This document shows positions 56,101 through 59,100 of a stretch of 64,000 nt of DNA, piece by piece (position 1 is the stretch's first letter; every line of letters begins with the position of its first letter). The position numbers were made by a program. The DNA is from a virus. Taxonomy: Duplodnaviria; Heunggongvirae; Uroviricota; Caudoviricetes. The stretch covers positions 9,000-72,999 of IMG/VR virus record IMGVR_UViG_2563366825_000011, one strand, 5' to 3'.

Positions 56101-59100
56101 CCTGCGATATTTTCGTACTGCTGCTCACTGTTAAGGTCATCGACCTTTTTCATGAAGTTATCTTCTGCCGGACGGAGAATATTTTTGTAATCCTGCCACC
56201 CTTTCCAGGCCACCTCTTCCTGTGCTATTTGCGCTGCTGTTGGTTTTACTTTGGTATCACCACCACCTTTACTTCCGCCCATAATGGCTCCTCAGATAAC
56301 AAAAAACCCTGCCGGAGCAGGGTCAGAATGTGAATTGCAATGTGGGTTTACGCTCGATGATGAATACAGTGGCAGTCAGACTGCTATCCTGAACACCATG
56401 AAGCCATCCTCATCATCCGGCATTCGCTCAAAGCCCAGACGTTTTCCCAGCCGGATAAATCCTCGTCTTGCCGTATGAAATTCGGCCCAGCGTCCGCCAG
56501 CCAGGCGGGTTAATGTCTTCACCTCCGGCAGATAACGCTCAACACTCTTACTCCCCGTACACACGCCCAGTAACACCAGAACATAAGGGATACCATCGTC
56601 ACTGAGCACAGAACGCAGCACCAGAAAACCATCCGGCGCTTCAAAGCAAAACGCCTGCTTTTTAAGGCAGGCGTCTTTAACTTCATTCATAAATTCAGGG
56701 TTGCGGGAATTTCTCACAACACGCTGCATATACCGGAGAATTCTGTCGTCCATTCTCTCACCTGAAACGGGTGCCATATCGGCTGAACCTCAGCAACCAG
56801 TTGACGGGGACTTTCGTCCCCGTCGCGGTTTTCCTACTGCTTACACTGTAAGAACGCCGCAAACTCCGCTCCCCACAAATTCAGCCGGAACTCACACAGC
56901 GAACCGTGTAACATCCAGATGGTGAAGATTACCGTCATGCAAATTGTGACGGTGATAAGCGATTTTTGCGACATAGCGCTTGCCTCCTGAGTGGAGAGGC
57001 GCTAACCTTCTACTTGTCAAGGAAAGAAGTGTCAGGGCCTCGGGTTAACGTTAAAGTTGACTCGGGGCCTTTCCACATCAGGCCTTCAGGTTCACCTTCC
57101 AGCCATCAGCCGAAAGGCACCCGCGCATAATCTACGATTTTTGCCCTGCACGGGCAACAAAAAACCCGCCATCACAGCGGGTTATGACATGTTGTCGGGT
57201 ATTACTCAGAATTTCAGGCCAATGCCTACAATAACCCCACTCGTGCGCCAGTCACCGGATCCGGAGCTTTCATACGCGACATCCATAGCAACACTTTCAT
57301 TCAGGTTAAATTGTGCACCAGCAGCCCATGCAAGTGCTGTTTTTTTAGTACTCTTGCTTTCAGAAAAACTACCGGCACCATGATTAAGATTGTCGTTAAT
57401 TTTCAAGTCAGTGGTGACTTTTGCAACCCCCATACCAGCCATTGCATACACACTGAGGTATTCGTTAAACCGCCACGAAGGACCGGATAGTAGACTCCAG
57501 TAATTAGCCCTGATATCAGTTCTCGCTGAAGCTGCCGGATTTTTAACCTCTCTGGATTCATCTCCTGGGTTAATATCAATAAATGCCTGCGCATTAGTCA
57601 TAGAACGCACCCATGTAAAAGATGTTATAACACCAATCTCATCCGTTATCTCATAACGATACCTGATGCTCATCCCCTGAGGAGATTTGCCTTTGCCATC
57701 ATGCCCCCGGACAGAAGCATCTGCATATTCGCCTGAATTGAAGTAGTGTCTGTTTGTAAAACGGTTAAAAGTATCAAGATTATAAAGACTTAAATCCTTA
57801 ACAAAATTGTTCAGTCCAGAGAGCTGAAGATGAGCGTATCCGAAAGAAACTGTACTGTCACCTTGTGCTGCACAGGCAGGGGCTGCTACAAAACTCATCA
57901 CAAAAGTTGTGCACGCAAAAATAATTCTGGCATGTTTCATTTTTAGACTTTTCCTATAATAAAATAACCCCGTATTATCTAAGATGAATTTAGTTTTATT
58001 ACTTAATATTCATACTGACAGGCATATCAGTCATATATTGATGAATTAATGACCAGCACTTTATCTATATACGGCTTCCGAATATCCCATGTTGCACGAC
58101 CGGAATAATGCTCACAGGAATATATTTTATTTCCTGTAGCCCCCGTTGATGTGGTGTAAATCGGTCGGTCATAAGGTGTACGCTGCCAGTTATAATACCC
58201 AACCAGTGCAGGCATAATTGCACATGGATATCCGAGATCTTTTTCAAATTTGATATCAACAGGTATTAACTTCGCGTCAAGCAGCATCATTTCGCCATGG
58301 TAAATCATCTCACCCGACGGGTTATACATGGCAATACCATACTCAGAAGGTTGAGTAACCATATTCGCAAAAGCATAAACAGTCGTAACACCAGGATTCG
58401 TTCCCCTGACAATTTGATGAAGCCTTAAGGCATGATATCCATCAATCTGTTCATGTGTGTACATGACATCGGCCTTTTTCTCTGTTCTGATAAAGAAAAA
58501 ACAACTTTTTCCTGACGGGATTGATGTTTTAAAAAAAGCCTTCTCAGTCGCCGGAATAGTTCCCTTATTGATCAGACACTGAGGCGTAAACCCCGGGCTT
58601 ATCCACAAGCTGCCATCTGGTTTCGTAATGCTTAAACCATACATACAACTCACCCCCAGAATGTATAAATATATGATCCCATCCCCTGCTCAAGATTCGA
58701 CCATGTCACCGTATTGCCATTAATGGTTATCTTCGGTACTTTCCGGTCCTTAAATACATTATTCCACGGAAATAATGAACAGACTGCCTGTAATGTTTTC
58801 CCTTCTGGTTTATTCGTATACGTTTTTGATCCCGACTCCGACGTAAATCTGTCCAGGAAAAATATGGGAGTAAGCACGCCCGTAACATTAACATTGTTTC
58901 TGTTGTATATTGCAAAACCATATTCTGCCAATGTCAGCCTCCGGCTCAGCTTAACCTGCCTATGCGAACAGCCAGGCGTCCGTTCTGGTCATAAACTTCA
59001 ATTTTATCATTGCGGATCACCAGCCCAACATTCTGATTAGAGTAACGAATTGTCAGTTGCCCCTGCGACGTAACACTAAAAAGGCCACCAATATTCAGGT

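Follow-up and report, generated by a model that had tools for sequence, protein, structure and literature searches.

The original records of two Shiga toxin (Stx) phages leave an unannotated gap after lom, of 429 nt between lom and L0129 in 933W (AF125520) and of 428 nt between lom and vb_24B_43 in Phi24B (HM208303). We analysed the corresponding place in a 64,000-nucleotide stretch of DNA from a Caudoviricetes virus (IMG/VR record IMGVR_UViG_2563366825_000011, positions 9,000 to 72,999), referred to here as the window, in which an earlier reading of the sequence alone (the sequence-only reading) had placed a hok-family toxin gene between lom and the downstream phage genes. The placement is correct, with lom identified by PHROG 108. 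In our view it is highly probable that we are dealing with a self-contained type I toxin-antitoxin cassette of the hok/sok type, present as a "moron" of a 933W-like (Sepvirinae) prophage after the lom terminator. The gene had also been called unannotated, which is true of AF125520 and HM208303 but untrue of RefSeq, where the identical gene is WP_000078907.1, a "Hok/Gef family protein" named by the annotation pipeline PGAP. The type I toxin-antitoxin kind and the gene label are already known, and the point of interest is the link between this locus and the 24B_1 RNA of Phi24B.

The gene is an open reading frame (ORF) of 46 codons with an ATG start, at 56974..56834 on the minus strand, whose translation is MSQKSLITVTICMTVIFTIWMLHGSLCEFRLNLWGAEFAAFLQCKQ. 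The 46-aa product features one transmembrane helix followed by SLCEFR...AAFLQCKQ, and a GGAGG ribosome-binding site (RBS) lies at 56987-56983, 8 nt 5' of the ATG, so that both the frame and the strong RBS of the sequence-only reading are borne out by the sequence and its translation. Its assignment to the Hok/Gef family also stands, because the protein matches the Pfam family HOK_GEF (PF01848) with 33.2 bits (E 4e-8) against a gathering score of 22 bits, in an alignment that spans residues 8-44 and profile positions 6-42 of 42. The protein further matches PHROG 251 (85.8 bits, E 2.8e-24). A search of approximately 5.8 billion proteins returned 56 relatives, mostly of exactly 46 aa and from E. 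coli, Shigella and Salmonella, and all of those named by their source are Hok/Gef proteins. Alignment to the Hok family, a check that had been suggested, yielded 31 members of about 46 aa that share an invariant C-terminal A.FLQCK and an invariant Cys27, and the MSQKS...AAFLQCKQ proteins of 46 aa form a Hok subfamily of their own. Longer proteins in the database were considered as mok fusions, which we rejected, as they are C-terminal read-throughs instead. PADLOC gave no match for Hok or for the protein encoded downstream. Compared with R1 and K-12 Hok reference sequences, the protein is about 34% identical to R1 Hok over 32 residues.

For comparative analysis we assembled 17 non-identical homologs, whose DNA identity is 74-97% and whose hosts are E. 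coli, E. albertii, E. marmotae, Salmonella and Citrobacter; a scan of species-representative genomes had given 7 loci only, three of them under improbable organism names, and the set hence consists mainly of E. coli genomes, phages and plasmids. These homologs occupy four kinds of context, namely next to lom in phages of the Sepvirinae, downstream of ogr in prophages of the P2 type, for example P88 (L011, L012, L016, L017 and L018), next to rpmE/ykgM (L014 and L015), and on plasmids (L018, L019 and L020). Sixteen of the 17 carry an intact ORF of 46 codons, and the E. albertii copy has one of 47. Pairwise ratios of nonsynonymous to synonymous substitution (dN/dS) range from 0.14 to 0.67 against homologs up to about 25% diverged in DNA, with the E. 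albertii value discarded because a 3-nt insertion had shifted the codon comparison. Judged by these ratios, the hok ORF is under purifying selection.

We next consider the transcript. A hairpin followed by a T-run, reported by a terminator scan at 57163..57183 (minus strand), forms the lom terminator and divides lom (57940..57206) from the hok unit. Downstream of it lies a putative hok promoter at 57129..57157 (minus strand), in which a -35 box TTGCCC (57157-57152) is separated by a 17-nt spacer from a -10 box TAGATT (57134-57129), and the -10 region is conserved across the 17 homologs. This promoter and the antisense promoter described below were identified by conservation and by agreement with published promoters. 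Transcription probably starts near 57123, with the Rfam sok model beginning at 57122, and the full-length mRNA unit covers about 358 nt (56766..57123, minus strand), which corresponds to the cassette conserved across genomic contexts. The minimum free energy (MFE) fold of this RNA of about 360 nt reaches -157 kcal/mol (z -6.5) and includes closure of its 5' end on its 3' end.

This closure pairs a tac-like 5' element, CGGGUGCCUUUCGGCUGA (57106..57123, minus strand), found in MFE folds, in the consensus fold and by duplex energies in 17 of 17 homologs, with the complementary fbi-like 3' element UCAGCCGAUAUGGCACCCG (56768..56786, minus strand). Because MAFFT misaligned the 3' fbi region, we assessed the tac/fbi duplex by prediction in each sequence, a procedure that leans toward finding pairs; the predicted duplexes range from -24 to -34.5 kcal/mol, compared with -14 to -21 for shuffled 3' ends, which makes them 3.4-5.2 standard deviations better than the shuffles. 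The 7-bp core is invariant save for one G-U, and the extension beyond it contains one-sided as well as two-sided changes, such as CGGCU/AGCCG in the window versus CGACC/GGUCG in Citrobacter. Conserved fold elements of a hok mRNA, on which the sequence-only reading had made its claim depend, are thus present in the form of a tac/fbi closure in every homolog. A search for the sok/mok fold, likewise suggested there, yielded this closure together with a match to the full length of the Rfam sok model that lies below threshold; under permissive local settings RF01794 aligns to 57122..56963 with 41.0 bits, over positions 1-157 of 157 (local E 9.2e-8).

Structural conservation extends to the whole mRNA. 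In its consensus fold 96.6% of cells are paired and 14 pairs have changed on both sides, which was reached by 1 of 500 shuffles, and the covariation score is 0.183 versus 0.03-0.06 for slid partners. The helix with the clearest covariation is a G+C-rich 3' stem-loop, CGACGGGGAC GAAA GUCCCCGUCG (56802..56825, minus strand), which the terminator scan reported on the opposite strand; 4 of its 9 pairs change on both sides and 99.3% of its cells are paired. In position it matches the 3'-terminal stem-loop that protects the truncated form of the R1 hok mRNA. The role of that R1 stem-loop, the metastable hairpin and the tac/ucb stem have been described (PMC9841398). The tac-like element has three possible partners, which are the 3' end (fbi), a ucb-like stretch at 57078-57062, and the stretch immediately downstream, with which it would form a metastable hairpin. 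Folding of the truncated RNA and the consensus fold alike predict both the metastable 5' hairpin and the tac/ucb-like stem, in agreement with R1; the pairs concerned (helix 2) show no two-sided variation and are hence without covariation. The RBS of hok is predicted by MFE folds to be sequestered in a hairpin at 56975..57003 (minus strand), in which AGCGCCUCUCC pairs with GGAGGCAAGCGCU, and the probability that GGAGG is unpaired is at most 0.07 in the full-length RNA.

In plasmid R1, mok is translated at least up to the hok RBS and is needed for Hok to be translated (PMC9841398). The sequence-only reading had expected a mok leader in 56975-57150, and this expectation failed, as that interval holds only an upstream ORF of variable length. 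In the window this ORF, MWKGPESTLTLTRGPDTSFLDK, comprises 22 codons plus TAG (57010..57078, minus strand), is preceded by a GAAGG RBS at 57087-57083, and occupies the mok position, but it stops 38 nt before the hok ATG. Its own ATG (57078) is kept in 15 of the 17 homologs, with a frame length that varies from 1 to 79 codons; the frame reaches or overlaps hok in only two homologs and has 8 codons in 933W and Phi24B, the closest phage copies. A search of all three frames of the 17 homologs, in which in-frame N-terminal extensions and starts other than ATG were also allowed, found no conserved canonical mok, and the two remaining frames have no conserved start. A TAG at -30 is conserved in 14 of 17 homologs and an in-frame stop lies no more than 39 nt upstream of the hok ATG in all, which excludes an in-frame N-terminal extension of hok. 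A TTG-started frame of 42 codons (57020..56892) overlaps hok in the window; it lacks an RBS and is not conserved.

In line with the Sok-like antisense RNA expected within the same interval, a conserved promoter and hairpin lie on the opposite strand. The antisense promoter (56980..57008, plus strand) consists of a -35 box TTGCCT (56980-56985), a 17-nt spacer and a -10 box TAACCT (57003-57008), with the -10 box invariant in the 17 homologs and the -35 box at a spacing of 17-18 nt. The predicted Sok-like RNA (57017..57097, plus strand) is the homolog of the 80/81-nt precursor of 24B_1 in Phi24B, and we placed its ends by aligning it with the published oligonucleotides of the precursor and with the Phi24B sequence. 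Its 5' tail is single-stranded and leads into a 16-bp hairpin (57035-57069), after which comes UUUCC; the 81-nt RNA folds with -35.6 kcal/mol (z -5.2), and every homolog retains the hairpin. Complementarity of the RNA to the hok leader extends over approximately nt 27-107 of the latter, a stretch that includes the RBS and AUG of the upstream ORF (GAAGG-AUG, 57087-57076).

The correspondence with Phi24B gives this antisense RNA a published history. A mini-review places the "microRNA-size" RNA 24B_1 of this Stx phage "between lom and vb_24B_43", and the published 20-mer TAACGTTAAGTTGACTCGGG equals Phi24B positions 45711-45692 (PMC4426718). When mapped on Phi24B, the 20-mer is antisense to hok and occupies the loop of the predicted hairpin together with its 3' arm. 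Its equivalent in the window is an exact match to TAACGTTAAAGTTGACTCGGG at 57046..57066 (plus strand), with one extra A relative to the 20-nt Phi24B form. The promoter p24B_1 was described with the boxes TTGACT and CGCTAACCT (PMC4426718); the -10 box is identical in Phi24B and the window, whereas the -35 box is TTGACT in the former and TTGCCT in the latter. The published 81-nt precursor starts 8 nt past the -10 box, and along its entire length it is complementary to the hok leader. Experiments in Phi24B support such an antisense RNA, in that a strand-specific 20-nt read maps to the hairpin and an 80-nt transcript from these promoter boxes was detected, which binds Hfq with a dissociation constant of 25 nM (PMC4426718, PMC10732415). 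The Phi24B locus is about 95% identical to that of the window, and its "intergenic" region encodes a Hok that is identical at 46 of 46 residues. On our reading, the 24B_1 precursor, which shares genomic place, strand, promoter type and hairpin with the lom-adjacent antisense RNA, is the homolog of the antitoxin RNA of the lom-adjacent hok gene. Most simply, and by analogy, the 20-nt 24B_1 would be a stable processing product of that antitoxin RNA; its discrete length fits specific processing without proving it. The published account differs, in that there 24B_1 regulates d_ant and sdhB in trans and is likened to herpesvirus microRNAs, without mention of hok.

The genetic constructs of the 24B_1 work bear directly on hok. 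The 189-nt deletion that defines the 24B_1 mutant begins at the lom terminator and ends 11 nt short of the hok ATG. The promoter, entire leader and RBS of hok are lost along with the antisense gene, which removes expression of toxin and antitoxin together. The primers given in 2015 for the "overproducer" pUC18_24B1 lie 565 bp apart (HM208303 45473-46037; L022 874-1438) and enclose the complete hok gene, a discrepancy with the 2023 paper, in which the insert is "the 189-nt region". Because deletion and plasmid both touch hok, the published phenotypes cannot separate the RNA from the toxin. The words hok, sok and toxin-antitoxin each have 0 occurrences in the 2023 paper (PMC10732415) and in a 2025 review, and hok has 0 occurrences in the 2015 paper (PMC4426718). 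In the open-access literature, one paper holds both "24B_1" and "hok", in separate sections, and the link may have been made elsewhere. For a decade, then, work on what would be an antitoxin RNA has gone on under a different name and a different interpretation.

By combining these observations with what is known of related systems, we propose the following mechanism. A weak constitutive promoter would produce the mRNA of about 358 nt, in which the 5' (tac-like) end is predicted to pair with the 3' (fbi-like) end and the RBS to be held in a local hairpin, and which encodes a membrane peptide of the Hok family, 46 aa long. From the opposite strand, a conserved promoter would give rise to a hairpin RNA of about 60-80 nt, whose complementarity to the leader takes in the start region of the upstream ORF. 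By analogy with hok/sok of plasmid R1 and hokW-sokW of Sp5, the full-length mRNA would be inert until slow trimming of its 3' end removes fbi, upon which tac would re-pair with the GGAAAGGCCCC box and the leader would refold, rendering the mRNA both translatable and accessible to the antisense RNA. In the same analogy, the unstable antisense RNA would bind the leader, RNase III would cut the duplex and no Hok would be made; if antisense transcription stopped, because the element is lost or the prophage is induced, translation of the stable mRNA would follow and Hok would insert in the inner membrane, with collapse of membrane potential and ATP. Release of the RBS could proceed by a relay within the RNA, in which tac captures GGAAAGGCCCC, the freed GAGGCC captures the anti-RBS GCGCCUC, and GGAGG is set free. 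The pairs of this relay (helices 2 and 5) fit the consensus fold, and all of them are invariant.

For the prophage, such a module could by analogy serve in addiction or stabilisation, in lysis upon induction as for hokW, or in exclusion of other phages as is reported for R1 hok/sok, and we regard all three as candidates. In Phi24B, the deletion mutant, in which expression of toxin and of antitoxin is lost at once, shows less lysogeny, faster induction and more progeny, which suggests that the module restrains lytic growth, the opposite of hokW. We put forward a broader proposal tentatively, with our own judgment leaning slightly against it: that this hok belongs to a mok-less branch under mok-independent control, and that the 24B_1 phenotypes result at least partly from losing or multiplying the whole hok/sok module. 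The phenotypes concerned are the lower ATP with the multicopy plasmid, the bias toward lysogeny, and the faster induction and greater progeny of the deletion mutant. As a candidate explanation of the reported ATP drop, a membrane-depolarising toxin would be simpler than weak sdhB pairing, and a mok-less branch would offer a natural test of how far hok regulation needs translational coupling.

The view in the literature is that the locus is a small-RNA gene, in which the antisense transcript matures into 24B_1. This RNA would act in trans on d_ant and sdhB and favour lysogeny, with hok irrelevant or unexpressed. This view can draw on 2223 identical 20-nt reads and an 80-nt transcript in induced Phi24B lysogens (PMC4426718, PMC10732415), and on phenotypes of deletion and overproduction in lysogenisation, timing of induction, phage gene expression and ATP. 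The mature RNA also binds sdhB mRNA in vitro, but weakly, at less than 10% at 100 nM, and both the 189-nt deletion and the 565-bp primer product of the plasmid involve hok. Moreover, ORF, RBS and tac/fbi closure are conserved, with purifying selection and covariation, where there is no Stx phage, d_ant or S gene, as in P2-like prophages, plasmids, Salmonella and Citrobacter, and the 24B_1 stretch differs in many homologs while the hairpin is kept, which fits the structure of an antitoxin and not a conserved trans seed. We therefore regard this explanation as unlikely when it is taken to exclude hok, although the antisense RNA may have a trans role beside a cis antitoxin role.

Two further explanations concern the hok gene itself. 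It could be a decayed or silent relic that makes no toxin, as several chromosomal hok loci of E. coli K-12 reportedly are. The missing canonical mok frame, an RBS that is paired in all modelled states, the non-lethal deletion of the region in Phi24B, with lysogeny still possible, and the presence in the window of another hok locus that is dead, cut by an insertion sequence, all speak for a relic. Set against these, all other elements are intact, including the ORF in 16 of 17 homologs with dN/dS well below 1 at larger distances; every row of a spread sample that covers the ORF carries it as a RefSeq gene and not a pseudogene; and the occurrence of up to 9 copies per genome, in contexts of four kinds, points to an active, mobile module, so we consider decay a shade less likely again than the small-RNA explanation. 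That the frame is open merely by chance in an intergenic spacer might be suspected from its shortness and its omission from the original 933W and Phi24B annotations. This idea is refuted, and retains next to no probability, in view of a Pfam match above threshold, the PHROG match with E 2.8e-24, dozens of orthologs with an invariant C-terminus, and purifying selection.

Several results count against a hok/sok-type cassette and temper our confidence in it. A sigma-70 promoter scan reported neither the hok nor the antisense promoter, which have 7-8 of 12 consensus positions; the hok promoter has only 8, and for this reason went unreported. The antisense RNA lacks a clear U-tract terminator, ending in UUUCC only. 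The Rfam sok match is below the gathering score of 59, and a scan of the whole window at gathering thresholds gave no match here. The protein scores 38.4 bits with the NCBIfam model of HokA (NF007290), for which the equivalog cut-off is 89; among curated Hok subfamilies, HokA of E. coli K-12 gives the highest score, and it has the C-terminal AAFL.CK motif in common with the 46-aa protein, but a score so far under the cut-off indicates that the protein is not HokA. The NCBIfam scan otherwise returned only Hok-subfamily matches, all of them below threshold. When the RBS was modelled in the full-length, truncated and antisense-bound RNA, the change was in the expected direction but too small to serve as support, in that 3' truncation raised the unpaired probability only slightly, from about 0 to 0.01-0.25. 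A mok of the R1 type is lacking at the lom-adjacent locus and in most of the 17 homologs, and consequently a block exerted by antisense binding some 40-100 nt upstream of hok is unaccounted for. Our literature search found no toxicity test of the 46-aa Hok and no repression test of its antisense RNA.

A first comparison is with hok/sok (parB) of plasmid R1, the founding type I system, whose Hok has been shown to be toxic (PMC9841398). Both systems encode a protein with an N-terminal transmembrane helix and a conserved C-terminal part that contains Cys, on an mRNA of about 360-400 nt with tac/fbi closure, a 3' protective stem-loop and alternative tac pairings, which for the lom-adjacent mRNA are predicted, and both have an antisense promoter inside the leader whose RNA targets the start region of the upstream frame, not the hok RBS. 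They differ in that R1 Hok has 52 aa versus 46 here and R1 hok/sok is a plasmid stability locus rather than a prophage moron. Furthermore, the lom-adjacent hok has a strong GGAGG of its own in a local hairpin, lacks a conserved mok that reaches hok, and matches the Rfam sok model below threshold.

A second comparison is with hokW-sokW of 933W and Sp5 (PMC8621323), for which the lom-adjacent locus might be mistaken. Besides "small toxic polypeptide" and "host toxic membrane protein", other phage records name the ORF "MokW-like host killing". We rejected an identity with hokW-sokW because the primers of Takada et al. (2021) match another leader in the window (~18670-18620). HokW, which is toxic and located in the inner membrane (PMC8621323), is a different protein of 51 aa that starts MKQQKAM, and in 933W hokW-sokW lies at 58.6 kb whereas the lom-adjacent locus lies at 45.4-45.9 kb. 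The two systems have in common their phage family, a Hok-family toxin and a small antisense RNA, which for sokW has about 71 nt and involves RNase III and Hfq (PMC8621323). They also share an identical -10 box TAACCT, as read from the mutagenic primers (PMC8621323); these primers replace AGGTTA/TAACCT in a promoter-less sokW mutant that was built to repress transcription and that lost protection against HokW (PMC8621323). The lom-adjacent locus is unmentioned in Takada et al. (2021; PMC8621323). Phages of the 933W type thus carry two different hok modules, hokW-sokW and the lom-adjacent one, of which only hokW-sokW has been studied as a toxin-antitoxin system. In consequence, toxin-antitoxin loci have been counted incompletely in enterohaemorrhagic E. 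coli (EHEC), and experiments devoted to "the" hok of Stx phages are likewise incomplete.

The window itself holds a leader of the hokW/sokW type at 18496-18667 (minus strand), which matches Rfam sok with 104 bits, above the gathering score, at a place that corresponds to the sokW/mokW/hokW annotation of 933W and VT2-Sakai. Its alignment to these loci extends only up to 18497. An insertion sequence begins at about 18497, with a 437-aa transposase ORF at 18422..17109 (minus strand), and no Hok ORF is present beyond about 18497 after this leader; the hokW-sokW homolog of the window is inactivated by the insertion sequence. An intact gene of the hokD (relF) type lies at 13734-13886 (minus strand), where the NCBIfam Hok-subfamily model scores 48.5 bits against a cut-off of 73, and Rfam shows no sok-like leader beside it. 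Its product is identical to K-12 HokD at 51 of 51 residues. With the lom-adjacent hok, hokD and the hokW remnant, the window contains three hok-type loci, two intact and one disrupted; the sequence-only reading was right about hokD and one short in its total of two.

We also examined how widely the cassette is distributed. Approximately 1750 of 5426 complete E. coli genomes contain the cassette of about 360 nt, with up to 9 copies per genome. Homology across contexts ends at GGGTGCC on the 5' side and just past GGCACCC on the 3' side, and because it stops at the tac and fbi elements, we conclude that the cassette is a discrete unit of about 360 nt; neither flanking repeats nor a recombinase was seen at its copies. 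In a sample spread over the 1760 matching records, every row covering the ORF is annotated "Hok/Gef family protein" and none as a pseudogene. E. coli G1/2 matches the window over 551 bases at 99.8% identity and has the ORF annotated as WP_000078907.1, between an Ail/Lom gene and hypothetical phage genes that are followed by a very large gene with an LPD38 domain. Near-identical cassettes (L003, L004 and L006) also occur on contigs filed as Xanthomonas pisi, a Planococcaceae metagenome-assembled genome and Vagococcus sp.; the first two contigs measure 857 and 4211 bases and that of Vagococcus 226 kb, and these copies are most likely enterobacterial contamination of the assemblies.

The neighbouring gene downstream (PHROG 610, function unknown) has its public start at an ATG at 56777 (minus strand), where it overlaps the fbi element of the hok mRNA. 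The PHROG 610 profile aligns from residue 9 only, and a second ATG at 56753 has a better RBS (AGGTGAGAG); the true start of this gene is probably 56753.

Elsewhere in the window, two copies of the Rfam family sRNA-Xcc1 lie about 540 nt apart on the plus strand (39742-39830 and 40279-40364), with 73 and 69 bits, above the gathering score. Two thermoregulator leaders of the cspA type (7040-7425 and 9935-10327, minus strand) and a DicF RNA (24254-24305, plus strand), together with hokD, point to a cryptic prophage of the Qin type within the window's first third. Finally, the noise of tblastn searches contained the same short peptides (LPRSSLI, CLILIC and DPLVVC) at about 15646-16665 on the minus strand and about 43136-44155 on the plus strand, which suggests that an inverted duplicated segment of at least 1 kb is common to two prophage regions.

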